From Actinomycetota bacterium (lineage in GTDB: Bacteria > Actinomycetota > JAHEXW01): a stretch of 64,000 nucleotides of DNA. The notes beneath the pieces were generated by a model. The model had not been told where the DNA came from. It searched no databases and saw only the letters and a program-made list of their open reading frames with translations. Below are positions 12,828 to 45,986 of this stretch, piece after piece. Position numbers and translations under genes: made by a program. Every line of letters starts with the position of its first letter. Position 1 is the stretch's first letter. The DNA lies in the NCBI GenBank assembly GCA_025355855.1, contig JANXYU010000035.1, forward strand, positions 20,604-84,603, read 5' to 3'.

Positions 12828-12828
12828 G

Positions 12829-13982: not shown

Positions 13983-16900
13983 TTGGTTAAACTAGCTAAG
14001 AGCCACCCGCTTAAGTTCATAGGACTTGTTCTCGGTCTTGTCGTCATCTATGTGTGTCTGGGGACAAATGTCCTTATCCGAACCGCGCAAGGCGAAGGCG
14101 CCATCGGCGCCGCCTGGGCCATCCACGTTGATACGCCCGTTACGGTTAAACTTAACCAGACTTTTACCGTTAAGGTCGGTTTAGTCGACCAAATGGGCAA
14201 ACCGCTGACCGGGCGGACCTACGGTACCGGTTACGGCCAGTTCTACCTCCCCGGTGACGCCATTAAGAACGCCGACGGACAAGTGGCCGAATACTGGGCC
14301 GACACCAAGAACGTGCGTGAGGTCAAAGACAAGTCAGATAACGGCACCGGCGTTTACGCGATACCGGTAATCGTCAAAGCCTGGCCCGCTCCCGTCAGCT
14401 CTAATATATATACACTGGAAGCATCCTACATCGGCCAGGGTGCCGGTTCGGCCGATCAGGCGACTGATCCGACGTTTGCCTTGGTTGACAGGACGACGTT
14501 CACCGCCGACGGCGCCGACGGTACGGAAGGCGTGATCAGGTACGCGCCGGTACTCACTAATAAGCTGACTGTTAAAGTCCCGGTGACGCAACCCGATAAA
14601 CCTACACCTGAACCACTCCAAAACATAGTCACCGTTCGTGTGAAGCCGATTGCCCAGATAAGAGACTCTGTGCATCACAACCGGAAACTGAGCGGCTTGG
14701 CTGATCCCCTGGATACGAGCAACTGGCTGGCACCGACCGCCGTTGATAATACCGGCCACAATGTCGCTGTCACCTTCGGAACGATTAAAGAAGAGACCGT
14801 CATCAAGCACGGAGCCAAAGGCAACACAACCGTGGGGATAGGCGTTTATGATGTTCAGCTGATTATTACGAGCCCGGTCACACTGGCCGGCAAGCGGGCC
14901 GCGATCACGTTCGGCTTGGACGCGACCGGCGTGCAGATGAAGATGAGTACGACCGTCAACTTCTCGACGGCGGTGGAAGAATCCGCGAATTATAACTCTC
15001 TGTACGGTGTCCCATATCTCGTAGAGGTGCCGCACACTCCGGTTATCTACGATGATCCGGATATGGATTTCTTCTGGGTCGGAGTCACGCCGCTAAATGC
15101 CGAAGAGCGCTTTGCCGATTACGACGTCTATCCGGTGACCGACACCGGCGAGGTCACGAACTCCTTCTACATGATTAACGAAGAGGGGTTACGGGTCAGG
15201 ATCAAGTGTCTTCGCCTGTATGCCACAATCGAAGATCCCGATATGATCGAAGTTGGCACTCCGCCGGAACAGGTCTCGCTTAACGTCAAGGGCGCCGAGA
15301 TGTTCGTGCGCGAGAAAACCGGCAATCCGGCGCAAGACGTTCCGCCGGCTGGCGCGGGCGGCGGCGCCGGAGTTGGCGCCAACGGTACCGGATTTGCGAT
15401 GCGGGCGGTCGACGGAGCCTTTAACAGTCCTTACGAGCAAGTCAAATATGATATGTATCCGACCGGCTCCGACCCGACTTCACTCTACGCCAGTACGCTG
15501 GCCGAGAAACAATATCTGTTCTGGGTCCATGGTAAGAATCAGCTGGATGTTTGGGGTTACTACGGTATAGACGCAACGTCTATCCCGGTTCCCAAGATAC
15601 TAAGCATCGACCGGACGGCGCCGACGGTATCGATTACCGACCCGCCTTTCGAGAACCCGGCCCGACAAGTAGCCGGCAATCACTTAAGCGTAGCCGGAAC
15701 GGTCAACGCCGACAACGGCGGCACTTTCAGGTCTTCGCTCAACAGCGTCGAGATCTATGACGGCTGGGACGCCGCCTGGACCGACGCCGGCATCAACCTA
15801 GACAAATATACGAATACCTGGTCCACCATGTACGACACGCTTTTCGAACCCGGCAACGCGTACACGCTGCAAGCCAGAGCGATCGACGGGGCCGGCAACA
15901 TGACACCTGCCGGCAGCTACGGTACGCGCAACGTCATCATCGATAACACCAAGCCGCTTGCCAGTGTTTCTTCGCCCGGCGACGGCATGGGCTATCCGAC
16001 CGGGACGACTAATATCACCGTTACCGGCGCTGTCTATGATCCGGACACGGCCACGATCGGCGACTTGAGTTTTGACCATTACACTGTGGAGTGGGCTCCG
16101 GGTATCAAATTGAGCGGCGACGCCGACACCGGCTGGACAATGATCAATAGCGGCACCGCGGCCGTGGGCGGGGCGTCGACGACGGGTACCTTGGCCAACT
16201 GGAACGTTGGACCGACCGGGGCCAACCTTACGGAAGGTCCGTATTCGCTGCGCGTCCGTTGCTGGGACAAGGCAGGCAACCGCAGCGATGAGAACCCGAC
16301 CGGGTATAACAACCTGATGTACGTGTTTATCGACAGCAGTAACCCGTTTTCCGCGCTGACCGTTCCTTATGTTGACGGGTCGGCGAACAATTGGACAGCC
16401 TCGACGATTCGCGGGACCGGGCGCGATTTCATGGCGGTTGGCGGAGCGCAGCGCTACGAGGAAGACGCCGCCGGCATCAGCTACTTCACTAGCTCCGGTT
16501 CGGCGGGCGGCTGGGCACTGGCAACCTCGACCGATAATTCCTTTAGCAATAACGGGGCTCGCTACGCGGCCACAGCCAATTATTACGCTCAATTCACCTT
16601 CACCGGCACCTATGTAACCTGGGTTTCTACCCGAGGCCCGAACCGAGGTTCCGCTCAAGTGTGGATCGATGGCGCTTTCGTCAAAACCGTCAATCTGAAT
16701 GCCCCTGGAGTAACCTATTATTATCAGCAAGAGGTCTTTTCCAAGACATTTACCACGGGCGGATCACATACCCTAAAAATCGTCGTTGTCAGCGGTCAGG
16801 TCGACGTCGACGCAATGGATCTTTACGCCGGGTCCGGTGTCAACCTTATCGACACTCGGATCAGACGAGTTGCGGATGGCTACTACTGGCATGACAGCAC

Positions 16901-19900: not shown

Positions 19901-22900
19901 TGTCTTTGACCGTTTCGATGACTTTAACGACGCCTCGCTCAATAGCAGCGTGTGGACCAACCTGGGCGGAGCGTCCGAAGGCAGTGGCACGCTGAACTTC
20001 AATGTCGACGCCTACAACTACAACGATTGGACGGCCGGCGGCCGCAGCGCGCCGGCGGTGAAATTGGCGACGCCGCCGACTGGCGACTTTACCGCGCGAA
20101 TCAAGATTTCCGCGTTCTCGGCGCAAGCCTATACTCAGGCCGGTATCTCCGCTTATAACTCTGATATCTCGGCTTATCTGATGGGGTTGGAGAATAACGC
20201 AACCGTAACGCGATACCAGCTCGACAAGATCGGCGGAACGGCTATCCCGGCGACTTACTACGCCAATAACCAGGCGACGAAGTTCCTGTATATCACCAGG
20301 TTAGGCGCAAGCTATATCTTCCAGATCTCAGACATAGACGGTACCAACCTGCAGCAGATCGGCACGACACCATACAACGACATTCCGTTGAGTAACGTCG
20401 TCCTATTCGCACGCGAATGGTACAACCCGGCGACCGGTACTTCCGGCTATCCGAGCGTAAACATGGACGACTTTTTTGTCCAGAAATATTCCGGTACGGC
20501 CACCGCGTCTACTTTCGTCAACAATGTCACAGTGGGTAATCCCGGAGCGGAAAATATGGACGGGCCGTTGGCGACCGCTTACGCGGCCAGCGGTTCGCTG
20601 GTTTCATCCGTCTTTAACTCCACATCCCCCAACGATTGGGGCTTGGTTAAGTGGACGGAGAGCGTCCCGACGGGTACGAGAATTACGATTCAGGTACGAC
20701 ACAACACGACTGCCGCCGACAACAATCCCGAAGACGGGGGTTGGAGCGCTTGGTCGGCTCCGATAACCGTATCGGCCGGTGAACAGATTCCCGGATTTAA
20801 CGCGCAGTACATTCAGTACAAGGTGAACATGTTCGCCAACTCTAACGCGACTAAGACGCCGGTTTTGAACGACATCACTTTCTATAACGGAGTCCTGGAG
20901 ACTTGGGACACAACGTCGTTACCTCTAGGAGACGGCTCATACACAATCCGCCTGCTAGTGTCCGATCAGCTGACCGATCCGCCTGATCCGTGGAAAACTG
21001 ACGCTCCCGGCAAGCACTCGATTTCCGCTCAGGTCGTCGTGAATGTTGAAAACACCAGCAAGCCGACATCAACCATAACAGCCCCGGCAATTGCGCCACC
21101 GAAAAACACCACGGCCGTACAGATCAAAGGCACGACCGATGTCACGGGTACCGGTTACGACGAGTTCCCGGGCGTGGGTAAAATCGAGATCAGAGTGAAG
21201 AGAAGTTCCGACGGTCTCTACTGGAGCGGCAGCGGCAACAATTGGTCGTCCAATGCCAACCAATGGATTTTGACGACCGATATCGAGGGGGCGGCGGCGT
21301 ACCGGTATTGGAAATACTCACTCAATACAACGTTGCAGGATTCCGGAAACTCGGTCTTTACCGACGGTTTATATACGATTGAATCTAAAGCGACGGACAA
21401 AGCGGGGGCCCAAGCGCTGTTAAGTCCGGATCCCTATCCTTTGATTACCATTAGAATAGACAATACCCCGCCGACCGGATCGATAACGTTCCCGGCGTCC
21501 AATGGCTATGTCAGCGGCGGGTTTGTCTCTGTTGACGGCGGCGTCAACGATCCGCCGGACGACGCCAACCTTCTTGACTTCAAACTAGAATATCGCAAAA
21601 CCGGGGCGTCGACCTGGAACGTGATCGCCAACGATAGCTATGAACATCCGCGGCTGCCGTTAGGTACCCGCTACTGGAAGCAAACGTCCGGCGCGGACTT
21701 CAACGCCGGTTCGAACGCGCTGGCCAACGGTAACGGAACGACCTTGATGGCCACAACCGTTTTGGCTCAAGGCACGACGACAACCGCCCTGGCGGATACG
21801 CTGTATCTGGGCGGCGCCTGGACCTTCGACGCCAACAGCGGACTATATACGCTGGTTTTCGCCAATCGTACGCTGCTTGCCGACGTCGATTTCCTGACGC
21901 TGCAAGGGGAAGTCAGGTTGGCGCCCGGCTCGTGGCTGCCGTATCGGACTATCCTTTTGGTCGGCACGACTACGACCAGCTTCGACGATACCACCAATAT
22001 CGGCGGTGTCTGGTCGAATGCCAACGGACTATATACTTTAATCACGGCCAACCGCTTGGTGTCGACCGGAGTCACCTTGCAAGGCAAGTTGAATATGGGC
22101 GGGCGGGTCGAGATGGATAGGTTCTTGTTGACGGACGGCTTTAACGGGTCATCTATCAACGGTACGAACTGGCTGAGTGTCGACACGGGCGGTAACATGT
22201 CAGTAGCTAATGCCGTCTCGGTCAACGGCCCAAACGATTCACAGCAGATGACATACACGCCGGCTTTGGCTACGGTACGCAATTTTGACCGGTCGACCAC
22301 GCAAAACATCGAGGCGGACTTCACTTTCAGCAGCTTTACGGCGACTTCCTTGGGCAATGCCGGCACTTATTTCGGCTGGAAGAACACGACATCGCTCTAT
22401 GACCTCGGGCAGTATGTCCACGCGTTTTGGATTTTCAACGGCCAGGTTAATGTTTATAACAATGGCGCCTCGGCCAGTACAGGCTACTCTCTGACAGCCG
22501 GTGTCAAGTACCGTTTACGGGTCGATCTGAAAACCGCCGGCGGAGCGACCTACTATTTCAGTAACGACGGAGGTATGACCTGGACTACGGCCTACGACAC
22601 CGCCGCCGGCACGGCTACGCCCCTTAAGGCGGGATTCACGAATAACAAGTATCCCTACCTCGGTTATCCCGTCAACACTTTCACGTTCGACACTGTGACT
22701 ATTCAAAAATATCTGACCGGTCCGAGCACCTACACGTCGGCCGTTTACGACGCCGGCGCATCCATCAACTGGAACACCACCGGCCAGATCAAATGGAGCG
22801 AAGCCAACGTCAACGGAACCACGAGCGATGTTACACTGCAGACGCGAACCGGTTCCTCGGCGACCGCCGGAGATCAAAACTGGACCGGCTGGAGCACGTC

Positions 22901-25900: not shown

Positions 25901-28900
25901 GGGTATCGTCGCCACGGCGCCGTCAAGCATCGTCGCGGAAAGCAAGGATAAGTCCGGCTACGCGAGTACCGCACTTGCTCTGGGAGACATGACTAATAAA
26001 TGGTTCCACGCGACGCTGTCAGTGGACGATGCCGCAGCCGGGACTTTCTCGACATTTGTTTATGAAATAAATAACCCGGGCAACAGCGCGACCTTTACCA
26101 AGGCGATGCCGCGCGGCATTTCGTGGCGCTTCCATAGCTCTATGGACGTGGGAACGGGATATATCGATAACTATGAGGAAGTGCGGCCCGCAGCCGCGAC
26201 GGTCATTCAAGGTCAATCATTTACGCTCGCCGGTACGGCAAATGACGCCCTGACGGGCATCGACGACGTGCAAATCAATATTGACGGGCGAGCCTGGTGG
26301 GAACCGATGGGCCCGTCGACGATAGTTGACACGTGCGATGCGATTGCGGGTTGGGCCAGCTCGTCGGGCACCTTATTGCTTAACGCACCCGACATTGTCA
26401 GCAGTTTTAGTTCTAACGGAACATTCGTCATGCCCAGCGGGCCGAGCACGGTTAAAGCGCTTGTGGTTGGCGGCGGCGGCGGCGGGGCCAATACCGGGTC
26501 CGGCGGCGGCGCCGGAGGCTATATATACCAATCCGCTTTGTCGCTAACCCCGGGTAGCTATCCTATAGTGGTTGGCGGCGGCGGCGCGGGCGGCGCGACC
26601 ACCGCAGCTGCCGGAACAAAAGGCAATAATTCGACCTTCGCCGGTATGACAGCCGAGGGCGGAGGTAATGGGGTATCGCACGGCAGCGGCAACGGCGGTA
26701 ACGGCGGCAGTGGCGGCGGCGGCGCGATTTCGACAACAACTCTGTTTGCGGGCGGTACAGGGTCGCAAGGCAACGCCGGCGGTGCCGGTTTCCTTGAAAC
26801 CAACTGGCTCGGTAATAGCGGCGGCGGCGGCGGCGCGGGAACCGCGGGCGTAACCGGAGGAAACTACCCCGGCGCCGGTAACGGCGGCACCGGTCTTAGT
26901 AACTTTATTTCAGGATCGGCTGTGACATATGCGGGCGGCGGCGGCGCTGGCGAGGTCAACGGAAGCTACGTTGGCGTTGGCGTCGACGGCGGCGGCAATG
27001 CGAACGTGAACGCGGCCGGTTCCAACGGGGTCAACGGCCGGGGCGGCGGCGGCGGCGGCGGTTCCTATAATTCTGGAACCTATACCAACGGCGGCAGCGG
27101 CGGATCCGGAGTGGTGATTGTCAGCTACGCCGATTCCAGCGGCACGTCCCAGATCGAAGGCAATTCCGCGTTGCGGCTGCAAAAGACGTCAACAGCTTCG
27201 ACACAGAACGCCTTTAGTAAAACAATCAGTGCGACTGATATGAGCGGCAAGCGGATCAATGTCTGGCTGTATGTTCGTGACGCTACGGCTCGCAATAAGA
27301 TTTCCCAAGTCCAAATGTACGTCGGCGGATCGACCTGGCTGCTGCAGAAAGCAGTCGACCGGAGCAGTTTGGCAATAGGTTGGAACACAATCTCCATCGA
27401 TATGATGAGCCCGGACGGGGTTTGGTTCAGCGGGGGTACTCCCGATTTGCGCTCCGTAACCACGATTAGGCTTGACGTGAATACTAACAACGCGTCTGAC
27501 TTATACGGTAGCGGTGAATTCATCATGGACCGCTGGACCTTATCGCCGTCGACCCGGGTCGATCAATCTGTGGGGACGACTTCCACCGGGCTGGTCGGGG
27601 ACTGGCATCTCGACGAGAATGCCGCGACGACGGCAATCGATTCTACCGGCAACAATAACGGCACAGTATCGGGTACCGGCTACTGGACCACCGGGCGCTA
27701 CGGCGCGTCCGCGATGTTGGGCAGCGGCGACGATATGGTCAACGTGCCTGAGACCAACACGGCGCTCAGATTAGGCGCTCAGCAGAGTACGGAAGCGTGG
27801 GTAAAATTCAACGGTACCGCGGCGGATTCGGTTCGCCTGGTCGGCAAAGGCAACGGTAATAACCGCAATTACGGCCTCTGGTTAATGACCGACGGATCGA
27901 TTCTTAATCAATTCCAGAATACCTCGTGGGCAGTTTATAGTTGTCAATCAACCACAAAGGTTAATGACGGGGCCTGGCATCACGTGGTCGGCACGTATAA
28001 CGGCAGTGTCATGAAAGTCTACATCGATGGCGTGGAAGCTGCCTCCTACAGTCCTGGAGCGATAACGCCGGTTACCTCGGTCGATCCGCTGACGATTGGC
28101 TACGGCAACGCCGGCGCCGCCTTGAACGGCGTCATCGACGAGGTCAAAGTATATAATGTAGCGCTCACGGCCGATCAGGTATCCAGCCGCTACGTAGAAG
28201 GGCCGGTAACCAGCGGTTCGCCTTATCTGACTTACCAAGGCAACTGGCGCCACCTGCTTAACCCGGTCGGTACCTACATGAGCGGCGGCAGCGTTAAGAC
28301 CAGCAATCACGCGACTGATACGGCGACAGTTACGTTCACCGGAACGTCCGTTACCTGGATCGGTACGCGCGGTCCGGACCGAGGAATTGCTCAACTGTTT
28401 GTCGACGGCTTCCGCGTGACGGACGGCGATACTCTGCTTACTGGAGATACAGGTACGGGGTCGAACGGTTTGCCAAACATGAGCGGTTTTGACCTCTACA
28501 GTGTAGCCGGTTCGTACCGGCAACTCCTGTACACCAAGAGCGGTTTGTCGAATGCTCAGCATACGTTGACAATAACTGTTACCGGCGCGAAAAATGGTGC
28601 CGCGACCGACGGTTATGTCGATGTTGACGCCGTCGACCTCGGCAACGCATATCCCTGGACCTATACCTTTAGCACGGCCGGTTGGGCCGCGGGCGCCCAT
28701 ACGCTAACGGCCCGAACTTTTGATAAGGCCGGCAATACGGCGACCGCGCCGACTGCGTATACGATTAATATTGACGACGCCGATCCTGTCGTTGCCCTAA
28801 CCAGCCCGGCGGATGGCATTTGGTCCAACGCGTCCGCCTTTGACATCAAAGGCCGGGCGACCGACGCCGACTTCAATTACTATATGCTGGAATACGGCTT

Positions 28901-31900
28901 GACCGCCTCGCCGTCTTACTGGTTCCCGGTCAACTCGAATCCGCGCTACAATCAGGTGACGGGCACCCCGCCCAACGATTATCTCGGTAAATTCAAGCCG
29001 CCATATGCCACACTCGACCCAGGCAACCAATTCCTGGCTGGGTGGGACCGTGCCAGCGCGGAAGGCTGGACGGCCGCCGGTTTTACGGCCGGACTTTCGA
29101 ATGGCGCTATCGGCGGTACGACCAATTCGACCGACGCCAGCTTGACGAGTCCGGGGATTGCCCTTGACAGTAACGTGTCTAAGGTCTTGCACGTGCGGAT
29201 GAAGAACGCCAATACAGCGGGCGATTCCGCCCAGTTCTACTGGTTGTACAGCTACCCCTATTCGGGATATTATGTGACCGGCAATGAATTTCTGCAACTC
29301 GGCGAGCTGCAGCCGACAACCCAGAATGAAAACGGCACATTCTCGGCGAGCCGAGGCATCTCGTGGCCGCTTGGACCGGCCAGTTACGCCGGTAAGTGGG
29401 TCGACTATCGCCTGAACATGAAGACCGGACAGGTTAGCGGTACGGCCAGAACGGAAGGCCCGACCACGACCACCGGTACCTGGACGACGGAGACCAATCC
29501 CGACGCCAGTGACGGTACCTCGCTGTACGCGACCGCCGCCGGCTCGGCGTCATATACGTTTAGCAACAACAATATCTCGGTCTTTACGACCAAGGGACCC
29601 AATCGCGGCAAGGCGCGTGTGTATTTTGACAACGCGTTAATAGTGGACGGGGACAATAAACTGACGACCGACAACCCGAACGATATCAACAAGTCCGGGC
29701 TTGATCTATACGCTCCGGTCACCCTGGGCCAACAGCTGGTCTACAGCAAGACGGCGATTCCGGATGTCTATACTTTATCGTCACCACGCACGCTGTCCAG
29801 CGGGTCGTCACTCCAGAGCCAGATGAACCTGACCGCCGGATCCGTCTTATCGATTGGCTCGACGCTAAAGATCGGCACCATCGCTCAAAATGCCGGCGAC
29901 GTCGCCAATATCGGCGGCTTTTGGACCGGAACCGGCCCTTGGACCCTCATCGGCACGCGCGCGATCATCAACAGCAACGTGGGTCTTCAAGGACCGTTAA
30001 CGGTAGTCCAAGGAGCGATCTTGCTCGCAAACTCCGCTATCAATACGAACTCGACAACCAACTCCTTGGTCGATACGCTTAATGTCGGCGGCAACTGGGT
30101 ATTCAGCAATACTCATACGATAAAGATCGAGTACACGGGTGAGAAAAACACCCTCTCCACCGGGACCCGAATCGATGTTGACGCCTACGAGGATACGTCT
30201 CTGCTGCAGGACTACCCCACCGGCTGGCCGGCGGTAGGCTTCTGGGCCGGCACCATCACCCAGATCAGACTTGATCCTAATTCAACCAGCGGCAACATAT
30301 TCGGTGTTGACTACATATCCCGGGAGGCGTCGGACGGCGTCTATAAGATCCGCTTGAGCGCATACGATAGGGCCGGACGGACCGCATCCACGCAAAGAAC
30401 CATAAACGTCGATACCACGCCGCCGAAGTGCATTCTAACGACGCCGACCAATATGCAATTCCTGTCCAGCGGCACCAACGTCAGCGTTACGGGCAACGCC
30501 GGCGACTACAACACCAACGGTGTCCAGAGCGGGGTCAACAAGGTTGAAGTCAGGGTTATCGCGGGTGTCAACGGCTTGACCGCGAATCCGGGTCCGTGGC
30601 AATTGGCAACGGGCACGACCAGCTGGAGCAAGACGATAAGTATCGCCGATGGCTGGTACGGGGTGCAGGCGCGCGCTACGGATAACGCCGGCAACATCCG
30701 GGAATCGAACATCGTCTATGTCACCGTCGACAACACACCGCCGCCGGTGCCGCGCTTGCGAGCGGTTACGTCCAAAACCGCGGGCGGAATACTCTTATCC
30801 TGGACGCCGGTCAAGGATGAGGGGTCAGGCGTCGACTACTATGTCGTCTATCGGAACAATGTTCCGATCACCGATAAGCTGTACTATCCGGACATGCGGA
30901 CAATCGACACCGTGGAAACCGGTACTACGCCAAAGAACTTCGGCGGTTCCAGCGACGAGATCTTCCGCAAATATTATGGCTGTAACGCGATCGATAAAGA
31001 CGGGTTTGGCTTTAACGCGAACGCGAACGTCAGATACGCGGTTCGCGCCGTAGACGCCGCCGGAAACTATTCGGCTAAGTACAGTCTGGCCGTGTACTAT
31101 GACACCAGACCGCCGGACGCGCCGGGTAACCCTGCCGCGTCGGTCGCCGGTGTCACCAATACAGGTCTGCTTTCATGGAGTCCTTCGGCCGACAACCAGG
31201 GCGTCGCCGAATACCGGATATATCGCGGTACTTCGCCGGGCTTCGTCGCTCCTGACGAAACGAAACAGGTCGGTTCCTGCGACGTGTCCGATCCGGGTAG
31301 CGGCGCCACAACGGTCACCAAGTTCTACGACCCGAATCTAGCCTGGAACCAGGACTACTACTATAAGGTAGTGGCCTTCGACGATATGATGAACTACTCA
31401 TCTCCGAGCGCCGAGGTCCATATCAAGACGCCGGCGTCCAAGACCGACTTTAACAGCGCCCTGCCTCACCTGGCTTATTCCAGCAATCCGACCGAGTGCG
31501 CCTTGTGTCACCGGGCGCATACGGCCAAAGGCGAGAAGCTAATCAACGAGACATATGAAGCCAAGTTATGCTTTACCTGTCACGACGGCTCCGGTTCGAA
31601 CTCCCCGACCAAGGCCGAGTTCGACTACTCGCCATCCGGCGCGCATCGTGTCCGAGACGAGCTGTATCCGGCGGGCAAGTTGTCTTGTATCGATTGTCAT
31701 AACCCGCACTTGAATACGGAAGCGGCCTCGGTCGACAACTTTGACGATGACCTTAGGCTTAACACCGATCCGGTTACAGGTAAGCCGATATCCATAATTC
31801 CCACCGTCCCCAGTGATTGGACCTGCACAGGCGGGAATTGGGCGATGTCTACCAGCCTGATCGGCAGCCCGGCCTATCCTGATCCGACCCACGCGGAGCT

Positions 31901-34900
31901 GCGCCAATCAGACACCGGCGCGAGTGCCGCGTTCGCCAAAAAGGATACCGGCTTGGTCGGAATTGCCAGCAAGGGCGGCTACTTCTCAACAGAGGTGAAA
32001 CTCAATAGTGACGGCCGGGCTTATCTAAGCATCGCGGGAGACGGATCGGCCTCCAGCGGGCTGATTGGCTCGATTACGCGGACGGGATCATCGGCTGTCT
32101 TCTCACTGACGGATGGTATCACGACCAAAACCGCCAGTTTCGCGTACGATTCCGCGATTCAGTATCGCATTAACTTAAAGATCAACCCGGAGCGCTGGGT
32201 GCAAGGAACCGTTACTACGGTTACCAAGGCCGATCTGCCGGACGGTCACGATACGATAACCGACGCGGCGGTTGCGCGCGGCGACTTCATCGCTAGCGCC
32301 ACTTCGTTTGTGGGCTCCTGGGTCGGTCTCGGCACCAGCGGCGCGTCGGCCGATTTTGACATGGTCAAGATCAATAATCCGGGCATGCTCCAGACTCGCT
32401 ATCGCGAGTTCACTCAGACGTCAGGTTCCAGCTATAGCATTCCCGATGACCGTGTTCTTACCGAAGCGTTCTGTCTGTCCTGCCACGGCACGTCGAATGA
32501 CAACCCGGGCGGCAGCCAGATGCAGTACTATACCTCCATCCATAACCCGGAAATGGGCGGCATGCAGGGTCAGATCAGCGACCAAGACTTAACCAACTAT
32601 GTCCGGAACAACCCGGGCCAGGTCACGCCTCGTTGGCAGGTTATCCGGGATGAATGGAAGGATCTTAAGACCAATCCTGCCTACGTCCTGTTGGGCACGG
32701 GACAAACCATCGGGTCATCGCTGAAGAATACCTCGAACGGTTGTTTCTACTGCCATGGCTACCACGGCCTGCAGTTCTACTATAGAACGCAGAAGGGCGA
32801 GGAAGAGCTGTGTTACAACTGCCATGGTCGGACGGCCAACAAATCCAGGGACGGCTGGAATGTCTACCAGCAATACAACGGCTTTGTCCAGCAGAACTCG
32901 CCCTTCCTGACCTACGCGGGCACCTGGCTGACCGAGGAAAGCGCCAACTATGGCGACAACGCCGTCAAATACGCCGTCGGCGGCGTCGTTGTCCCGCCCT
33001 GGTACAACGCCTCGTGGGTAAGCCGGAAACTGATCACGATCAATAATCCAAACGTCGGCGTGGACAACTATCAAGTCAAACTGACTATCGCCAAAGAGCC
33101 CGGCATGAAGGCGGATTATTCCGATCTTAGGTTTGCCACCTCAGACGGCACGACGATGCGGACTTTCTGGATGGAGAAATACGATTCCGCCTCGGCTATC
33201 GTCTGGGTCAACCTGCCGCGTTTGGACAGCGGCAACAGCTCCAACAACAATAAACTCTATCTATACTATGGCAACCCCGGCGCGGCGTCGGCCTCCAATA
33301 TTGTCGGAACGTTCCTATACGCCGATGACTTTACCGCAACAACGATCGACTCATCCTGGTCACCGGTCGGTTCGGTGACAATGGACGGAACCGCTGCCGG
33401 TTGGGTTACGCTGAATTCCGTCGGCGCCACCGGCCCGGCGACCATTACTCATAGCTATCCGGTCCAGACCGGCGACTATGTGGTTGAGGCTAAGGCGAAG
33501 TTCCCGTCCGTCTACCGTCAGCGCCCGCGTCTGTTGAAATCGGACAACACCGATCCGACGGGCATCACCGACTACGGTTTCGGCGACAACCAGGTAACTG
33601 TCACCGCCTACGGCGGCGGCACTACCTTGACCGATTACATGACCAGCTGGTGGAATGGTGATCCGTCAGCGACAACAGCAGTACCCCCGTGGGACAACAA
33701 TGCCGGGAACGACTATGTTACCGGCTTGACACCGCAGGAACTCTTGATGCAATATAAACTGCAAGCCTCACCACAGCAATTCACCTGGCAATATTACGAC
33801 TACGCCGGTTATAACAGCGGCGGCGCCCCCCTGCGGACGCACAGCACGACCGGCGGAACCACCAATACCTATGCTAAGGTTCAATTCTCGGGTTCGCAGA
33901 GCGACAACTCCGACTGGCTGATCGATTGGGTCCGCGTTCGCAAGTACTTGCCGACAGACCCGACGGTCGTCTATAGTCCCCCTGACGGCACAACGGCCAA
34001 TTCGGTTTCCTTCACGTTCACCGGAACGGAATTCTCCTGGGCCTCGACCAAGGGACCGGATCGCGGCGTCGCCACCGTCTTTATCGACAATGTCTCGCAA
34101 GGCGACGTAAACTTGCAGCTGCCGCCCGAGCAAGGTTATCTCTACAACACGACCGTATTCAACAAGCAATACCTGTCACTGACGCCGCACACCGTAGTCA
34201 TCACGGCGAAAGCCGGCCGAGTCGACATCGACGCGGTTCAGGGCGGCACCAACGGTTCACGCCATGGTTTGACGATTCGCGACGCCCAGATAAAATGTAC
34301 CAGCTGTCACGGCCAGCGGGCGATGACCGACCGGCATGTCTACGAGGGCTTTGCGACGTCGATTATCGCCAACCCGGCTAATATCAAGCAGTACTGGTCT
34401 GACATGCGCAACGTCAACAAGACAATCAATGACTACTGCAACACGTGTCACAAGGAAGCGGATACGAGAGGCCGCGTCTTGCGCGAGACCCATACGTCCA
34501 GCAAGATCATTCCTTATACCATCAAGTATCCGCCGCTGATCACTACGACCTCGGCTAACGGTTTCGACCGGACCGGTTATACCCTGGGCGATATCTACCC
34601 GATCCAGGAGAACTTCACTGGCGTGGTGAAATATCCGCTGGCCGCTTGGACGACCGATTCGCCGGGTACGGACGATTATGAAGGCGGCGAGGATATCTAT
34701 AGTTCGCCGACCAGCCCCGATATCACCGCTTACGTAGAGTACACGTTCACCGGTACCTACTGCGCCTACGTGGCGCGCTATGGACCGGACAGCGGAATCG
34801 CTCAGGTGCTCATCGACGGGCAACGCTACACAGACGGCAACGTCTCGTTGCCTGGGGATAACCCCAACGAATACTCGGGTGTCGACCTCTATAGCTCTGT

Positions 34901-35516
34901 GCCTGCCTATCGAATCGTCGCGGCCACCCGCAGCAGTCTCCCGATGGGTTCGCACACGATAAGAGTAAAGGTTACGAGCAATAAGAATGCCTTGTCCAGC
35001 GGTTATAGAATTGATGTCGACGCGTTCAAATATGCGGTACCGCGCGTCGGCCACTATCTGTTCGCGCCGCAAGGCCCGGCCACGACGATAATATCGATAG
35101 CCGATCCGACTCACTTCACAGTGGCGAACGCCGGGATGGCTCAGTTGGCGGTCGGCAACACCATCACCATCGACTTCGGCGAAGTGCCGCATCCGGCGCA
35201 ATCGATGACAATCGTCAGTTTGGCGGGCAATGCCGTCGAGGTATCGAGCGGGCTTAACGCCAGTCACACGGTTGACTGCACGGTATCCAACACGACCAAG
35301 GCCAACTGCGCCGGTGTTTGTCACGACCCGTTGCCTGACTATATCAAGAACTCTCAGGAAGCCAAGACCAAGATCACCTGCGTCACCTGTCACCATCCGC
35401 ACGCGACGCCGTATCAAAGGGTTGTCAGGTGGCCGGAAGACACCAAAGTAGGTAATATCGTGACCGAGGGAGCCTGCCTCCACTGTCACAACGGCTCGGT
35501 TAAGTATAATTATTGA
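13983..35516 (+). CDS. Giant (7177 aa) mosaic cell-surface protein: N-terminal TM/signal anchor, tandem Ig-like modules, 8x ~110-aa 'TFTGT..GPNRG' beta-modules, 3x DUF2341, 2x LamG, Gly-rich (PF12810-like) domain, 2x FN3, and a C-terminal OmcS-like multiheme module (10 CXXCH + 1 CX3CH) split by lectin-like insertions
   Basis: 21.5 kb without an in-frame stop; TTG start with RBS GAGGAAAGG; domain signatures read from the translation (see findings); ends in TGA at 35514-35516. Confidence 0.85.
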   Translation: MVKLAKSHPLKFIGLVLGLVVIYVCLGTNVLIRTAQGEGAIGAAWAIHVDTPVTVKLNQTFTVKVGLVDQMGKPLTGRTYGTGYGQFYLPGDAIKNADGQVAEYWADTKNVREVKDKSDNGTGVYAIPVIVKAWPAPVSSNIYTLEASYIGQGAGSADQATDPTFALVDRTTFTADGADGTEGVIRYAPVLTNKLTVKVPVTQPDKPTPEPLQNIVTVRVKPIAQIRDSVHHNRKLSGLADPLDTSNWLAPTAVDNTGHNVAVTFGTIKEETVIKHGAKGNTTVGIGVYDVQLIITSPVTLAGKRAAITFGLDATGVQMKMSTTVNFSTAVEESANYNSLYGVPYLVEVPHTPVIYDDPDMDFFWVGVTPLNAEERFADYDVYPVTDTGEVTNSFYMINEEGLRVRIKCLRLYATIEDPDMIEVGTPPEQVSLNVKGAEMFVREKTGNPAQDVPPAGAGGGAGVGANGTGFAMRAVDGAFNSPYEQVKYDMYPTGSDPTSLYASTLAEKQYLFWVHGKNQLDVWGYYGIDATSIPVPKILSIDRTAPTVSITDPPFENPARQVAGNHLSVAGTVNADNGGTFRSSLNSVEIYDGWDAAWTDAGINLDKYTNTWSTMYDTLFEPGNAYTLQARAIDGAGNMTPAGSYGTRNVIIDNTKPLASVSSPGDGMGYPTGTTNITVTGAVYDPDTATIGDLSFDHYTVEWAPGIKLSGDADTGWTMINSGTAAVGGASTTGTLANWNVGPTGANLTEGPYSLRVRCWDKAGNRSDENPTGYNNLMYVFIDSSNPFSALTVPYVDGSANNWTASTIRGTGRDFMAVGGAQRYEEDAAGISYFTSSGSAGGWALATSTDNSFSNNGARYAATANYYAQFTFTGTYVTWVSTRGPNRGSAQVWIDGAFVKTVNLNAPGVTYYYQQEVFSKTFTTGGSHTLKIVVVSGQVDVDAMDLYAGSGVNLIDTRIRRVADGYYWHDSTDATPSYRNTFQPASAGTPWLAATVNSGRHTAYVTNWQYSVAAIPSHTQVDISTRATDDTGNVEASPTSTRILVQTEAPVTTYQPPANGLNNWYVLVMPDNIVPPLLLTGTEPSSPNAGAKNIYYQWTSTAVGTAPTSGYINYSAASPATSISHILDLDSPSHGLTQDGTRRLWYYSSDIVGNSETPHYTDFSRDIVAPVAPAFTAPQLPDYQYQRATVSLTGNTSDATSGVNKVEMTAQNNAGLYWGGPGTTTWTSTPVWFQISGTTAWTYGFNSVAAAGGDGNYTFRARSTDNAGNVSGVGALTCVIDNTAPTTYHTFSIPSPDGDNGWYKTDISVSLVPRDPAPGSGINLTYGGWNFNNSNVNITGQWGGLSTNPDLNGTYYFGYYSTDNSGNSQTPVFVNFKKDSERPFSTITTPTLDGQYLRRSIAFAGTAWDPTNPGSPGSGLQREEVTIRENFAPFYYWNGVAGAGAAWTATPVWVPATGSTSWTYSWDTLNTNVPQDNADYKLVARAVDNAGGAQVTPVERVVHVDNTPPVVTLVDPPDNEGLVPTDYPIRATFSEKMAPGTINSPAANFIIKNSVGAAMPGTILYSEQGASYFAVFSVTGTFSRGAVLTGVVNRGATDLAGNPVIVNHSASGTSIVGQEPWSAITYSGAGWSTVSDAGASGGAYKHSNVDTNYAEVTFTGTDFKWLSGKGPNYGIAHVWLDDTVDQGTFDLYNASQQYKQAIVNLTGLTDTTHKLKIIVTNAKNAASSDYFIDIDAFEGAVNTTWKFTTAGVDAQIWQPVTGSRVYGQVPIMGQANGEAFQQYKLQYKKNDGTDTFHDFGVVHTTPQVSQVWPFQTDWSDGATGGPSPQEVIDPANPEHPAGRYHTATNITANGADAASSLQLSSAGTVWPYRKAITITNTGAQMTDYQIRVPVTFVTSHMKANFDDIRFTDSNGQDILAHWKESFTASSAAVFWTKIPVVPAGTPANPTVKTIYMNYGNFNAQSGSSNGANVFDRFDDFNDASLNSSVWTNLGGASEGSGTLNFNVDAYNYNDWTAGGRSAPAVKLATPPTGDFTARIKISAFSAQAYTQAGISAYNSDISAYLMGLENNATVTRYQLDKIGGTAIPATYYANNQATKFLYITRLGASYIFQISDIDGTNLQQIGTTPYNDIPLSNVVLFAREWYNPATGTSGYPSVNMDDFFVQKYSGTATASTFVNNVTVGNPGAENMDGPLATAYAASGSLVSSVFNSTSPNDWGLVKWTESVPTGTRITIQVRHNTTAADNNPEDGGWSAWSAPITVSAGEQIPGFNAQYIQYKVNMFANSNATKTPVLNDITFYNGVLETWDTTSLPLGDGSYTIRLLVSDQLTDPPDPWKTDAPGKHSISAQVVVNVENTSKPTSTITAPAIAPPKNTTAVQIKGTTDVTGTGYDEFPGVGKIEIRVKRSSDGLYWSGSGNNWSSNANQWILTTDIEGAAAYRYWKYSLNTTLQDSGNSVFTDGLYTIESKATDKAGAQALLSPDPYPLITIRIDNTPPTGSITFPASNGYVSGGFVSVDGGVNDPPDDANLLDFKLEYRKTGASTWNVIANDSYEHPRLPLGTRYWKQTSGADFNAGSNALANGNGTTLMATTVLAQGTTTTALADTLYLGGAWTFDANSGLYTLVFANRTLLADVDFLTLQGEVRLAPGSWLPYRTILLVGTTTTSFDDTTNIGGVWSNANGLYTLITANRLVSTGVTLQGKLNMGGRVEMDRFLLTDGFNGSSINGTNWLSVDTGGNMSVANAVSVNGPNDSQQMTYTPALATVRNFDRSTTQNIEADFTFSSFTATSLGNAGTYFGWKNTTSLYDLGQYVHAFWIFNGQVNVYNNGASASTGYSLTAGVKYRLRVDLKTAGGATYYFSNDGGMTWTTAYDTAAGTATPLKAGFTNNKYPYLGYPVNTFTFDTVTIQKYLTGPSTYTSAVYDAGASINWNTTGQIKWSEANVNGTTSDVTLQTRTGSSATAGDQNWTGWSTSYTNPAGEAITSVPNRYIQYRVSETYTGTYAPNSPLPAVGDVTLSYTGGTGASQLEYWNTSGLQEGTYTLRLTITDKAGNTNTTPIESKPVTLDKTAPHASLNNIGTVFGAKRYIRANIGLTGTADDGMWTNRMPIAITNPTGSAQTDYQVKVPVTFAAGMRSDFNDLRFTDGSGNKLPYWIETFTASSAATVWVLLPALPSPGGTTIYMTYGNSAADVTNQSFNKVMRDANDMANAYRQDLPVTGAVGLWHLETPTTSGLNYLWTDSTANANNAVLDNGAWSYTQYGHMQGAAGAYFDGIDDVATVANSASLQALTGNATFEFWIYPQNISAGRSNPIDKSYGGQFSFTLETNGSLTYYHGTAKTNGSYTTFMAVPPGSLENNNWYHVAVVRDNTAKTLKGYLNGVLVSSTTYTILPGAATDNMTFGIGYAGTPFKGLLDEVRISNAALTSDAIMKDVGIRKWSASEPVAGAPGANAANIYEWGNFGHYELTFAGPEGGTIPPAFAGGTTPVTGGALGTWNTRAVQDGDNYSVKLYDIDLANNTATTSLTGMTIDNTPPRVSSMVPAKNETFVDDRISQKAYFTESVRAATLDTPAVSFTKKLMNLPNTLVAGTVKYTELGAMYYATFTQTTPPLTYDAWYTDTISPAVKDQAGNPLAVAFEETDALVSYTGTGWTDATSASASGGAYKWSNTAADDVTIGFDTDTAAGTGTAVAWVGQKGPNRGIARVYLDGVDVGTIDQYSATTVWQQPLYKTGDFTNGHHTLRIVATGTKNGASSDTRVDVDAFWLDFNTVWNFQVAGIEVGISSPTPNQRLRGTAPITGTADGSVASFQNWILEYAPHGTNSWTNITTSTTRVVNGLLANWATPASGQYDVRLTVNDTTSPTPRFKQKTVVVTVDNTNPTVSVDRLTYFRDSFDARDATNWSYNNALTTVPVSLNGQNVIRNVGAGGQTWASNFYRPNYTIKDRDQVSFDFRMASGATSFYNFLEGNDNQGEYMRWGIVATAPSSIVAESKDKSGYASTALALGDMTNKWFHATLSVDDAAAGTFSTFVYEINNPGNSATFTKAMPRGISWRFHSSMDVGTGYIDNYEEVRPAAATVIQGQSFTLAGTANDALTGIDDVQINIDGRAWWEPMGPSTIVDTCDAIAGWASSSGTLLLNAPDIVSSFSSNGTFVMPSGPSTVKALVVGGGGGGANTGSGGGAGGYIYQSALSLTPGSYPIVVGGGGAGGATTAAAGTKGNNSTFAGMTAEGGGNGVSHGSGNGGNGGSGGGGAISTTTLFAGGTGSQGNAGGAGFLETNWLGNSGGGGGAGTAGVTGGNYPGAGNGGTGLSNFISGSAVTYAGGGGAGEVNGSYVGVGVDGGGNANVNAAGSNGVNGRGGGGGGGSYNSGTYTNGGSGGSGVVIVSYADSSGTSQIEGNSALRLQKTSTASTQNAFSKTISATDMSGKRINVWLYVRDATARNKISQVQMYVGGSTWLLQKAVDRSSLAIGWNTISIDMMSPDGVWFSGGTPDLRSVTTIRLDVNTNNASDLYGSGEFIMDRWTLSPSTRVDQSVGTTSTGLVGDWHLDENAATTAIDSTGNNNGTVSGTGYWTTGRYGASAMLGSGDDMVNVPETNTALRLGAQQSTEAWVKFNGTAADSVRLVGKGNGNNRNYGLWLMTDGSILNQFQNTSWAVYSCQSTTKVNDGAWHHVVGTYNGSVMKVYIDGVEAASYSPGAITPVTSVDPLTIGYGNAGAALNGVIDEVKVYNVALTADQVSSRYVEGPVTSGSPYLTYQGNWRHLLNPVGTYMSGGSVKTSNHATDTATVTFTGTSVTWIGTRGPDRGIAQLFVDGFRVTDGDTLLTGDTGTGSNGLPNMSGFDLYSVAGSYRQLLYTKSGLSNAQHTLTITVTGAKNGAATDGYVDVDAVDLGNAYPWTYTFSTAGWAAGAHTLTARTFDKAGNTATAPTAYTINIDDADPVVALTSPADGIWSNASAFDIKGRATDADFNYYMLEYGLTASPSYWFPVNSNPRYNQVTGTPPNDYLGKFKPPYATLDPGNQFLAGWDRASAEGWTAAGFTAGLSNGAIGGTTNSTDASLTSPGIALDSNVSKVLHVRMKNANTAGDSAQFYWLYSYPYSGYYVTGNEFLQLGELQPTTQNENGTFSASRGISWPLGPASYAGKWVDYRLNMKTGQVSGTARTEGPTTTTGTWTTETNPDASDGTSLYATAAGSASYTFSNNNISVFTTKGPNRGKARVYFDNALIVDGDNKLTTDNPNDINKSGLDLYAPVTLGQQLVYSKTAIPDVYTLSSPRTLSSGSSLQSQMNLTAGSVLSIGSTLKIGTIAQNAGDVANIGGFWTGTGPWTLIGTRAIINSNVGLQGPLTVVQGAILLANSAINTNSTTNSLVDTLNVGGNWVFSNTHTIKIEYTGEKNTLSTGTRIDVDAYEDTSLLQDYPTGWPAVGFWAGTITQIRLDPNSTSGNIFGVDYISREASDGVYKIRLSAYDRAGRTASTQRTINVDTTPPKCILTTPTNMQFLSSGTNVSVTGNAGDYNTNGVQSGVNKVEVRVIAGVNGLTANPGPWQLATGTTSWSKTISIADGWYGVQARATDNAGNIRESNIVYVTVDNTPPPVPRLRAVTSKTAGGILLSWTPVKDEGSGVDYYVVYRNNVPITDKLYYPDMRTIDTVETGTTPKNFGGSSDEIFRKYYGCNAIDKDGFGFNANANVRYAVRAVDAAGNYSAKYSLAVYYDTRPPDAPGNPAASVAGVTNTGLLSWSPSADNQGVAEYRIYRGTSPGFVAPDETKQVGSCDVSDPGSGATTVTKFYDPNLAWNQDYYYKVVAFDDMMNYSSPSAEVHIKTPASKTDFNSALPHLAYSSNPTECALCHRAHTAKGEKLINETYEAKLCFTCHDGSGSNSPTKAEFDYSPSGAHRVRDELYPAGKLSCIDCHNPHLNTEAASVDNFDDDLRLNTDPVTGKPISIIPTVPSDWTCTGGNWAMSTSLIGSPAYPDPTHAELRQSDTGASAAFAKKDTGLVGIASKGGYFSTEVKLNSDGRAYLSIAGDGSASSGLIGSITRTGSSAVFSLTDGITTKTASFAYDSAIQYRINLKINPERWVQGTVTTVTKADLPDGHDTITDAAVARGDFIASATSFVGSWVGLGTSGASADFDMVKINNPGMLQTRYREFTQTSGSSYSIPDDRVLTEAFCLSCHGTSNDNPGGSQMQYYTSIHNPEMGGMQGQISDQDLTNYVRNNPGQVTPRWQVIRDEWKDLKTNPAYVLLGTGQTIGSSLKNTSNGCFYCHGYHGLQFYYRTQKGEEELCYNCHGRTANKSRDGWNVYQQYNGFVQQNSPFLTYAGTWLTEESANYGDNAVKYAVGGVVVPPWYNASWVSRKLITINNPNVGVDNYQVKLTIAKEPGMKADYSDLRFATSDGTTMRTFWMEKYDSASAIVWVNLPRLDSGNSSNNNKLYLYYGNPGAASASNIVGTFLYADDFTATTIDSSWSPVGSVTMDGTAAGWVTLNSVGATGPATITHSYPVQTGDYVVEAKAKFPSVYRQRPRLLKSDNTDPTGITDYGFGDNQVTVTAYGGGTTLTDYMTSWWNGDPSATTAVPPWDNNAGNDYVTGLTPQELLMQYKLQASPQQFTWQYYDYAGYNSGGAPLRTHSTTGGTTNTYAKVQFSGSQSDNSDWLIDWVRVRKYLPTDPTVVYSPPDGTTANSVSFTFTGTEFSWASTKGPDRGVATVFIDNVSQGDVNLQLPPEQGYLYNTTVFNKQYLSLTPHTVVITAKAGRVDIDAVQGGTNGSRHGLTIRDAQIKCTSCHGQRAMTDRHVYEGFATSIIANPANIKQYWSDMRNVNKTINDYCNTCHKEADTRGRVLRETHTSSKIIPYTIKYPPLITTTSANGFDRTGYTLGDIYPIQENFTGVVKYPLAAWTTDSPGTDDYEGGEDIYSSPTSPDITAYVEYTFTGTYCAYVARYGPDSGIAQVLIDGQRYTDGNVSLPGDNPNEYSGVDLYSSVPAYRIVAATRSSLPMGSHTIRVKVTSNKNALSSGYRIDVDAFKYAVPRVGHYLFAPQGPATTIISIADPTHFTVANAGMAQLAVGNTITIDFGEVPHPAQSMTIVSLAGNAVEVSSGLNASHTVDCTVSNTTKANCAGVCHDPLPDYIKNSQEAKTKITCVTCHHPHATPYQRVVRWPEDTKVGNIVTEGACLHCHNGSVKYNY

Positions 35517-35518
35517 TG

Positions 35519-35527
35519 TGGTATAAT
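35519..35527 (+). promoter_or_regulatory. Extended -10 element TGgTATAAT at the very 3' end of the giant gene, positioned to drive the downstream cytochrome gene
   Basis: TG at 35519-35520, TATAAT at 35522-35527; no obvious -35. Confidence 0.3.
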
Positions 35528-35563
35528 CGAAAAACACCAGTCAACAGCGATAATGAGGGAGAA

Positions 35564-39087: not shown

Positions 39088-39088
39088 C

Positions 39089-45963: not shown

Positions 45964-45986
45964 TTGAGAAGTGAGAGGAGAGGGAA

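Follow-up and report, generated by a model that had tools for sequence, protein, structure and literature searches.

Introduction

Large adhesins of the SiiE, LapA and MpIBP RTX type are 5-7 thousand residues long; they are anchored N-terminally, continue in an extended series of Ig-like domains and have sugar-binding modules near a C-terminal working end. In the MHC-A, -B and -C proteins of anaerobic methanotrophic (ANME) archaea, giant multiheme cytochromes are joined to domains of the S-layer, peptidase-M6-like or pectin-lyase-like kind (PMC9012536). OetF is an FN3-bearing cytochrome from the conduit clusters of syntrophic sulfate reducers (PMC10553843), and large multiheme cytochromes have been reported in Anaerolineales (PMC7399161). 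PgcA of Geobacter is a small, soluble and unanchored triheme protein of the 'hemes on a string' type, with one heme per domain and flexible Pro-Thr tethers (PMC12307469). Open problems include the anchoring of cytochrome nanowires, the points at which electrons get onto and off such wires, and the wiring of cells without an outer membrane to solids (PMC12307469). Here we describe a gene on a 64,000-nucleotide (nt) stretch of contig JANXYU010000035.1 from an Actinomycetota bacterium (the window), which a preliminary description had picked out from the sequence. It encodes a protein of 7,177 amino acids (aa), referred to below as the giant, in which a very long heme-free stalk precedes a C-terminal region with 11 heme motifs. 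The family to which it belongs is of interest because nanowire anchoring and the contact points of the wires are acknowledged open questions (PMC12307469).

Results

An intact giant gene in a small conserved family

All coordinates refer to the window. Open reading frame (ORF) listing and translation place the giant gene as follows:

13983..35516, + strand: giant ORF of 7,177 aa; TTG start, kept in the related genome nzgw113, with the Shine-Dalgarno-like sequence AGGAAAGGA 5' of it

As the preliminary description had claimed, the frame runs uninterrupted over 7,177 codons to a single terminal stop and is not due to chance. The base composition of the ORF gives a stop probability of 0.036 per codon, i.e., about one stop expected in 28 codons, and a probability of ~1e-114 that 7,177 codons contain none; the other five frames over the same DNA hold 119-399 stops each. 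The GC content of the ORF is 57.2% rather than the 60% first quoted, with 69% at third codon positions versus 51% at the first two. No long DNA repeats were found inside the ORF, and its sole repeat family is 42 nt long, shows 67-74% identity and codes for the IDNTxP junctions between domains. Mis-assembly via repeats is therefore unlikely. The window is 99.95% identical to Logan contigs of run SRR22198310.

A genome-collection scan revealed contig JAHEXW010000002.1 ('MAG: Actinomycetes bacterium nzgw113', NODE_204_length_115261_cov_5.2; MAG, metagenome-assembled genome), which shares 84% DNA identity with window positions 20195-39501. The nzgw113 ortholog, pieced together from two overlapping loci and called at 7,157 aa, is 90% identical to the giant at the aa level, has the identical TTG start and upstream sequence, differs by six small indels that are all in frame, and preserves all ten CXXCH motifs. 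Over 5,089 aligned codons, the nonsynonymous rate (dN) was 0.054 and the synonymous rate (dS) 0.87, giving a dN/dS of 0.062, and no 250-aa block fell outside 0.03-0.13. On two metagenome contigs, the homologs are open over the whole of the available locus (at least 5,247 and at least 5,166 codons) and span the stalk-cytochrome junction. Another MAG contig, JBFOMW010000098.1, encodes a 6,500-aa homolog with the same synteny as in the window.

Using the last 433 aa of the giant as query, we searched 1.84 billion representatives of 50%-identity clusters exhaustively with HMMER. Of the 12 matches below 1e-30, five are full-length (5,958-7,590 aa) and have the same heme module at their C-terminus; the others comprise the second half of a split gene (P0161), four partial or fragmentary sequences and two matches to a beta-module alone. 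The full-length proteins are colinear with the window protein from end to end at 34-39% identity, all of them show the N-terminal helix pattern, and their hemes are confined to the last 1,200-1,360 aa. The same architecture is hence present in independent assemblies, and the giants form a small conserved family of 6-7.6 thousand residues, with about six 50%-identity clusters among the 1.84 billion representatives. Orthologs already exist as called genes or predicted proteins in public MAG and metagenome collections, where the one name given is generic (P0001, 'DUF2341 domain-containing protein'). Relatives are labeled Actinomycetes or Actinomycetota and the more distant ones Chloroflexi or Chloroflexia; the host is an uncultured groundwater or sediment bacterium.

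An assembly artefact, or a fused or decaying gene, in which repeats were mis-joined or separate adhesin and cytochrome genes were read through, is highly improbable. Such an origin would fit the L001 homolog, which is called as two genes of 2,780 and 1,236 aa, the fragmented L004 homolog, and the breaks that several assemblies show at the gene. However, the L001 split is a frameshift within a conserved KGG(Y/L)FS motif and no gene boundary (the contig, contig_69666, has a name hinting at a long-read assembler), and the 7,157-aa ortholog, the records of 5,958-7,590 aa and the two ORFs of more than 5,100 codons all remain in frame across the stalk-cytochrome junction. The dN/dS of 0.06 and the lack of long internal repeats also speak against it. 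We rejected the artefact or pseudogene reading on these comparative grounds, which confirm that the giant gene is real, single and contiguous.

On contigs with long-read-style names ('contig_N'), the giant homolog is frameshifted, once in L001 (8590-8640) and many times in L004. Assemblies L003, L007, L008 and L012 break inside or just after the giant gene or in the paralog-rich region downstream. Because of such frameshifts and contig breaks, automated annotation will often miss or split members of the family.

N-terminal helix and heme-free stalk

The part of the giant that precedes the hemes is divided as follows:

13983..14081, + strand: basic stretch and 21-residue hydrophobic helix (aa 1-33), from the Kyte-Doolittle profile; pattern kept in orthologs
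14082..15596, + strand: family-specific N-terminal region (aa 34-538), no Pfam match; colinear in all orthologs at 34-39% identity
15597..31418, + strand: heme-free mosaic stalk (aa 539-5812), from Pfam and fragment comparisons; no CXXCH before aa 5839

The Kyte-Doolittle average over 19 residues peaks at 2.36 at aa 14, with a next best value of 1.41. Residues 12-33, which follow Lys residues, are the only strongly hydrophobic segment and the only transmembrane (TM) candidate in the protein. The N-terminal TM or signal anchor of the preliminary description was thus recovered as a hydrophobic helix, which is predicted to act as a signal anchor or a long signal peptide. Its pattern, P.KFI...G......GT, is conserved in six orthologs of 34-39% overall identity. 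A word-indexed database search with the N-terminal 540 aa returned no homolog outside the giant family.

Pfam scans confirmed most of the modules that had been proposed: Ig-like units (Big_3_3, Big_13 and Big_5), three DUF2341 domains at aa 1905, 3136 and 6378, which score 69, 54 and 63 bits (cut-off 23.4) and each precede ConA-like sequence, two Laminin_G_3 domains (aa 3272 and 4582; 163 bits summed) and two weak fn3 matches (aa 5591-5812). A glycine-rich domain is present at aa 4145-4382 and belongs to Gly_rich_2 (PF21722), not to PF12810 as first assumed. The CE2_N/CBM35-like beta-module of ~110 aa was counted in seven copies instead of eight, with 30-45% mutual identity and one copy interrupted by an insertion; five copies lie in the stalk (aa 847, 1627, 3643, 4765 and 5167, the last one split) and two in the heme region. 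These copies were detected with fragment queries; a BLAST self-comparison of the whole protein gave the identity match alone. The D-N-T junctions proposed earlier correspond to an IDNTxP motif at seven junctions, and one further match to the motif lies elsewhere. With its DUF2341 domains, ConA-like sandwiches and Laminin_G_3 domains, the giant falls among the DUF2341/LamG (ConA-like) surface proteins, and its stalk modules look carbohydrate-binding-like. The protein is rich in Thr, Gly, Ala, Ser and Asn, acidic and poor in Cys.

Among the Pfam matches of the giant there was no RTX or hemolysin-type calcium-binding domain and, at E<=0.1, no S-layer domain (SLH, DUF1608). A sortase or other covalent anchoring signal is absent from the C-terminus, which consists of a heme motif; the sole LPxTG string is internal, at aa 3214. 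Neither the RTX/type I secretion system (T1SS) adhesins nor the sortase-anchored adhesins with a C-terminal LPXTG motif accommodate a protein of this kind.

The first 5,838 residues contain nine scattered Cys and not a single heme motif, and the heme sites are found in the last 19% of the protein alone, in agreement with the earlier claim of ~5.8 thousand residues of extracellular-type modules ahead of the hemes. Because 5,800 aa without a heme motif and with just nine scattered Cys separate the two ends, the stalk cannot conduct electrons, and the 'cell-envelope-spanning electron conduit' of the preliminary description is unlikely. As a non-conducting element, the stalk would therefore serve as a tether and binder.

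The stalk varies between lineages. In P0162, the 6,495-aa protein of L008, it includes a GH130-like beta-propeller at aa ~2880-3300 (49.7 bits to Pfam Glyco_hydro_130), for which the window protein has no counterpart; the stalks are lineage-specific mosaics of carbohydrate-related modules.

Four heme clusters separated by heme-free inserts

The C-terminal region carries ten CXXCH motifs and one CX3CH motif over ~1,350 aa. They form four clusters of three, three, two and three motifs, with heme-free modules of 225, 455 and 225 aa between them:

31446..31718, + strand: heme cluster I (aa 5822-5912), PH motif, CXXCHxxH, CXXCH and CXXCHxPH
31728..32402, + strand: insert 1 (aa 5916-6140), heme-free beta-rich module, 38-46% ortholog identity
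32403..32882, + strand: heme cluster II (aa 6141-6300), CXXCH at 6164 and paired CXXCH at 6254/6277
32883..34247, + strand: insert 2 (aa 6301-6755), DUF2341 (aa 6378-6459), ConA-like region and beta-module 6
34248..34607, + strand: heme cluster III (aa 6756-6875), CXXCH at 6772 and 6819; most conserved segment, 75-78% identity
34608..35282, + strand: insert 3 (aa 6876-7100), beta-module 7 and a small domain
35283..35513, + strand: heme cluster IV (aa 7101-7177), CX3CH at 7109, CXXCHHPH at 7133 and CXXCH at 7165

The CXXCH motifs start at aa 5839, 5863 and 5902 in cluster I, and the last one, at aa 7165, lies 12 residues from the C-terminus. The preliminary description had the protein end in a multiheme cytochrome. 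This is correct in that c-type heme motifs occupy the last 19% of the protein; they are, however, distributed over four clusters with heme-free modules between them and do not form one terminal block. Exactly 22 Cys are conserved in the heme region among five to eight homologs, which equals the number required by the 11 motifs, and the CX3CH is kept in seven of eight homologs. The 26 conserved His comprise 11 proximal ligands, two residues within beta-modules and 13 others. To judge from these counts, there are enough His for bis-His ligation of 11 hemes, and ligation is probably of this type.

No part of the protein is better conserved than the heme segments, in which distant orthologs are 60-79% identical (62-79% in cluster I) as opposed to 32-53% in the inserts. 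The partial homolog P0001 lacks insert 2 entirely and L007 lacks the small domain of insert 3, and in both cases the adjoining heme segments are unchanged. This pattern favors, but does not prove, that the inserts are folded decorations in the loops of a heme core.

In the Pfam scan, the C-terminal end scored 55 bits to Paired_CXXCH_1 and 37.5 bits to Cytochrom_c3_2, which exceeds the cut-off in each case, and also matched c7 and MtrC-II families. NCBIfam yielded generic multiheme matches only, all far below the cut-offs. With conserved heme sites and His residues and an N-terminal export or anchor helix, the giant has the general features of a multiheme c-type cytochrome.

Heme motifs also differ between family members. 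In the 7,590-aa ortholog P0164, the second motif is widened to CX13CH (CFSGPKLLDNSTPGCH), and the CX3CH site is missing from the 5,958-aa ortholog P0163. Neither the number of hemes nor the type of motif is hence constant in the family.

Relationship of the heme region to the OmcS family

Five paralogous hexaheme genes, each encoding ~365 aa with exactly six CXXCH at conserved positions, flank the giant gene:

11724-12827 and 12820-13950, + strand: two OmcS-family hexaheme genes directly upstream of the giant gene
44896..48227, + strand: three further OmcS-family hexaheme paralogs

Compared with the PDB, a 96-sequence alignment of these paralogs matched OmcS (6ef8_A) at E 1.4e-25 over all six motifs and OmcE at 4e-8. 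As the paralog profile matches OmcS over the six motifs, we assign the flanking hexahemes to the OmcS family. An AlphaFold2 model of one paralog reached a mean predicted local distance difference test (pLDDT) score of 77.5 with the 96-sequence alignment, versus 31 with five sequences.

The first heme unit of the giant is related to these neighbors. Aligned with hhalign to the 96-sequence paralog alignment, aa 5821-5911 matched hemes 1-3 (template 30-159) with a probability of 99.5 and E 2.5e-23, and cluster I matched the OmcS-like family at E 1e-14 in the hidden Markov model (HMM) comparison. At the other end, aa 7089-7148 showed a weak match to paralog hemes 5-6 (hhalign probability 78, E 1.8e-5; HMM E 1e-6). 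The HMM alignments are colinear from the first heme to the last. From these alignments, the heme region appears to be an 11-heme module of which the first unit, and probably also the last, is common with the OmcS-like family. The HMM and hhalign data fit one hexaheme core with a heme-bearing insert as well as a 4+6 tandem arrangement. As a whole, the region differs from OmcS-family proteins, which have six ordered CXXCH within ~350-410 aa: it has 11 motifs, 1,350 aa and three large inserts.

His5846 of the giant lies in the motif CALCHRAH (CXXCHxxH) and is conserved in all eight homologs compared. All 96 paralogs have His at the corresponding position (H66), which aligns with the last His of CEGCHTMH in OmcS. 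We take this residue, three positions past the first heme motif, to be His16, the ligand to the heme of the neighboring subunit in the filament. One OmcS heme does receive its distal His across the subunit interface, from the neighboring subunit, and ligation between subunits has been described as a general feature (PMC12307469). The OmcS-like head of the giant is fused to the FN3 domain exactly where the mature N-terminus of the free paralogs lies.

Genomic neighborhood

The electron-transfer setting that had been proposed for the giant is well founded: its locus is an extracellular-electron-transfer island in which all window genes point in the + direction. The window begins with two NapC/NirT-like decahemes, Lnt, a 12-heme protein, Rex, GAF-HD and an MtrA/DmsE-like 14-heme protein, continues with a TM-anchored TPR protein, an NHL protein, two OmcS-like genes, the giant and an 821-aa pentaheme, and proceeds through five EB_dh/DOMON-like lipoprotein ORFs, an 813-aa membrane protein and three OmcS-like genes to two more EB_dh-like genes and a B12-radical-SAM/UbiA/U32 block. 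Next to the giant lie, besides the OmcS-family genes:

9801..11563, + strand: TPR protein with a TM anchor and beta-propeller protein of the NHL type, ahead of the two upstream OmcS-like genes; syntenic in relatives
35513..37978, + strand: 821-aa TM-anchored pentaheme gene, whose start overlaps the stop of the giant gene (TGATG)

The second OmcS-like gene ends 32 nt before the giant start. The pentaheme protein carries a TM helix at its N-terminus and five CXXCH; its C-terminal half (~400 aa) is free of hemes and has no Pfam match. Its gene follows the giant in every relative with visible downstream DNA (L003, L001, L007 and L008), at 56-91% identity, and its product is therefore a likely physical partner of the giant. 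The order TPR, NHL, two OmcS-like genes and giant is likewise conserved in relatives. Apparently, the two OmcS-like genes, the giant and the translationally coupled pentaheme gene form one operon. NHL or other beta-propeller genes have been documented in further outer-surface cytochrome clusters (PMC9769857; bioRxiv 10.1101/2025.10.22.684050).

The upstream genes encode, among others, the NapC/NirT-like pair, the 12-heme protein, the Rex-type redox-sensing regulator and the MtrA/DmsE-like protein (215-1963, 4156-5235, 5260-5892 and 8242-9762). The two NapC/NirT-like proteins are quinol-dehydrogenase-like and have 10 CXXCH within just 282-292 aa; the 14-heme protein consists of seven paired-CXXCH repeats. 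Together, these proteins plausibly provide an electron path from the membrane to the surface. No porin-like gene was seen within the window.

Interspersed among the cytochrome genes are seven to eight EB_dh/DOMON-like (PF09459) paralogs, at 37975-42294, 48510-50556 and 58544-59608. Most have lipoprotein-type signal peptides ending in Cys, and they may be surface lipoproteins that bind heme b or glycans; the Lnt gene (2580-4091) belongs to this island as well. Two of the ORFs, 40142-40696 (184 aa) and 40730-41206 (158 aa), correspond to the N- and C-terminal halves of the paralog at 39089-40138 (67% and 63% identity). The same split pair occurs in the 82%-identical nzgw113 (L010) and in L009, and is therefore a conserved split and no assembly error. 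Positions 42281-44722 lie between the EB_dh genes and the second group of OmcS-like genes and encode an 813-aa predicted membrane protein with a central spermidine-synthase/methyltransferase-like domain, which is kept at this place in relatives (770-804 aa, L009 and L010). Positions 50558-57814 encode two B12-binding radical-SAM proteins, an unannotated 486-aa protein, a UbiA prenyltransferase and two U32-peptidase-like (UbiU/UbiV-like) paralogs. This block is syntenic with the cytochrome island in L009 and L010 and may be a quinone-modification module tied to electron transfer.

Discussion

Our preferred reading, to which we give a probability of roughly 0.5, is that the giant is a redox-active adhesin tip which physically couples OmcS-type wires to the cell or to a substrate. 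The N-terminal helix would hold the protein at the cytoplasmic membrane. From there, the modular stalk would extend for ~100-200 nm, a rough estimate from ~45 modules of 3-4.5 nm each, and would attach to glycans or to surfaces, for example matrix, mineral coatings or partner cells. The working end would be the heme module at the C-terminus. Electrons would reach it via other cytochromes, with the OmcS-like paralogs as the obvious candidates; the module would presumably dock to filaments or complexes of these paralogs, exchange electrons with them, and hand electrons on to whatever the lectin-like loops hold. The giant is thus a candidate for the link of wires with cells or solid surfaces. The ideas of a nanowire anchor, tip adhesin or mineral-binding protein in the preliminary description are compatible with our results, which do not prove them.

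Several observations weigh against this reading. Much of the resemblance to the paralogs stems from the paired-CXXCH motif, which is generic and matches the 14-heme neighbor seven times as well. In PDB searches, OmcS was absent among the matches of the C-terminal 1,377 aa of the giant (best match MtrA, E 0.023), and a profile of the heme segments from six orthologs retrieved nothing significant (best match 9yuq_N, E 0.004) and no OmcS; by neither route does the giant resemble a whole OmcS subunit. The fusion to FN3 may block filament-type contacts at the OmcS-like head, the four clusters may sit apart instead of packing into one chain, and the N-terminal helix could be part of a cleaved signal peptide, which would make it ambiguous which end is proximal to the cell. 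Furthermore, the taxonomy and envelope type follow from the MAG labels of relatives, and it is from these labels that the host cells would lack an outer membrane. The label 'OmcS-type' used in the preliminary description is partly right: five neighbors belong to the OmcS family and the first three-heme unit is homologous to them (99.5%), whereas the 11 motifs, the large inserts, the weak C-terminal match (78%), the generic paired-CXXCH signal and the failure of the giant alone and of its own profile to find OmcS in the PDB restrict it. A more specific form of the proposal, in which the giant is the dedicated terminal subunit of an OmcS-type filament in bacteria without an outer membrane, with the module joining or capping the hexaheme polymer while helix and stalk tether the wire to the cell or fasten its tip to a partner cell or a solid coated with glycans, is tentative and on the doubtful side.

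Other functions can be assigned to the same architecture. The heme clusters might be separate small redox domains between folded spacers, which a long flexible stalk swings between cell-surface cytochromes and acceptors without docking to OmcS-like proteins, i.e., a tethered diffusive shuttle and a membrane-bound analogue of PgcA. The 3, 3, 2, 3 grouping of the motifs with 225-455 aa of heme-free modules between them would agree with such a shuttle, as would the lack of any significant match between the heme profile and a filament cytochrome, and tether-separated heme domains extend the range of electron transfer in PgcA (PMC12307469). Yet the spacers are folded beta-sandwich modules rather than flexible Pro-Thr linkers, insert losses leave the adjoining heme segments unchanged, which fits loop insertions into a single core, and from the first heme to the last the heme segments come in the same order as in the OmcS-like family. 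We regard the shuttle as unlikely. Somewhat less likely still is an orientation in which the N-terminal peptide is cleaved, the heme module binds the 821-aa pentaheme or the cell-surface cytochrome network, and the lectin-like stalk points outward and holds the cell on mineral, matrix or partner so that other cytochromes make contact. The overlap of the TM-anchored pentaheme gene with the giant stop, its presence after the giant in every relative examined, a possible signal peptidase site (A-Q-G) past the hydrophobic stretch and a C-terminus that has no sortase or other covalent anchoring signal all suit this arrangement. The helix, however, is 21 residues long and its pattern is kept across orthologs of 34-39% identity, which would be unusual for a cleaved signal peptide, and it is at the C-terminus that the protein is best conserved and decorated, as in adhesins that bind their ligand distally.

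Finally, the giant might be a structural protein of a surface layer, sheath or cell-cell junction, whose hemes serve local redox buffering or electron sharing among neighboring cells and not external solids. Its Thr/Gly/Ala/Ser/Asn-rich, acidic and Cys-poor composition is typical of extracellular structural proteins, it is very large and has many beta-sandwich modules, and the giant ANME cytochromes have been proposed to integrate into S-layers (PMC9012536). We nevertheless consider a structural role improbable, given that the Pfam matches include no SLH or DUF1608 domain, that a single gene with a single TM helix shows no self-assembly signature, and that the gene is tightly linked to OmcS-like and quinol-oxidizing cytochromes.

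Returning to the coupling of wires by an adhesin tip, the giant family offers a concrete and testable candidate for the missing link between wire and cell or solid, and OmcS-family genes, five per locus, are now placed in Actinomycetota- and Chloroflexi-labeled MAGs. If the giant were a terminal filament subunit, it would be the first anchor or tip adaptor known for a cytochrome nanowire. If the heme module is a wire segment with decorated loops, it would illustrate how a heme chain can take up lectin-type domains, which would be useful for engineering targeted bioelectronic interfaces.

Among the known systems, OmcS of Geobacter sulfurreducens (PDB 6EF8/6NEF) is related to the giant through the OmcS-like paralogs. 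The genes are adjacent, the first heme unit is homologous to paralog hemes 1-3, and the last block, with CXXCHxPH followed by CXXCH ~10 residues before the C-terminus, mirrors hemes 5-6; bis-His ligation is probably a further shared trait. The giant differs in having 11 motifs instead of six, ~900 aa of non-heme inserts and a 5,800-aa stalk in front, and in giving no direct significant match. With PgcA it has in common that heme units are parted by non-heme sequence, and tethering could extend its reach; in contrast to PgcA, its spacers are folded, each cluster holds two to three hemes and the protein has a membrane tether. The layout of N-terminal anchor, Ig-like run and sugar-binding-type modules that accumulate towards a C-terminal working end, as well as the size, is that of the SiiE, LapA and MpIBP-type adhesins, but the giant has no RTX repeats, type I secretion signal or regular tandem repeat, is a mosaic at 30-45% identity, and carries a multiheme cytochrome as its distal end.

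The statement in the preliminary description that such a protein has not been described was too strong, as fusions of cytochromes with surface domains are known from the ANME giants (PMC9012536) and OetF (PMC10553843). Like the giant, the ANME proteins are very large extracellular c-type cytochromes with heme-free surface or carbohydrate-binding-type domains and a TM anchor, and they are proposed to export electrons from cells without an outer membrane (PMC9012536). They are archaeal, however, carry S-layer domains and C-terminal helices and have 20-86 hemes spread over most of the protein, whereas the window protein is bacterial and 81% heme-free, with 11 hemes at one end and an N-terminal helix. 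It has neither the DUF1608-type S-layer domain nor the tens of hemes along the protein by which the ANME type is defined (PMC9012536). OetF and several CXXCH proteins of 1.1-1.7 thousand residues with fn3/Big domains, which we found in the homolog search, resemble the giant in the fusion of multihemes to FN3/Ig-like domains and in their electron-transfer clusters, which also hold OmcS-like genes. They are four to six times smaller and have neither the set of DUF2341, LamG and CBM-like domains nor an OmcS-related heme unit, and the literature examples of the OetF type come from bacteria with outer membranes. Within the searchable literature, we found no paper that combines DUF2341 with multiheme cytochromes and none that pairs 'OmcS-like' with Actinobacteria. 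What is new in the giant, compared with these systems, is the inverse proportion of an 81% stalk to 11 hemes, the OmcS-related heme unit, the N-terminal membrane helix, the insertion of lectin-type modules between heme clusters, and the strict linkage to multiple OmcS-family genes in Actinomycetota- and Chloroflexi-labeled MAGs.

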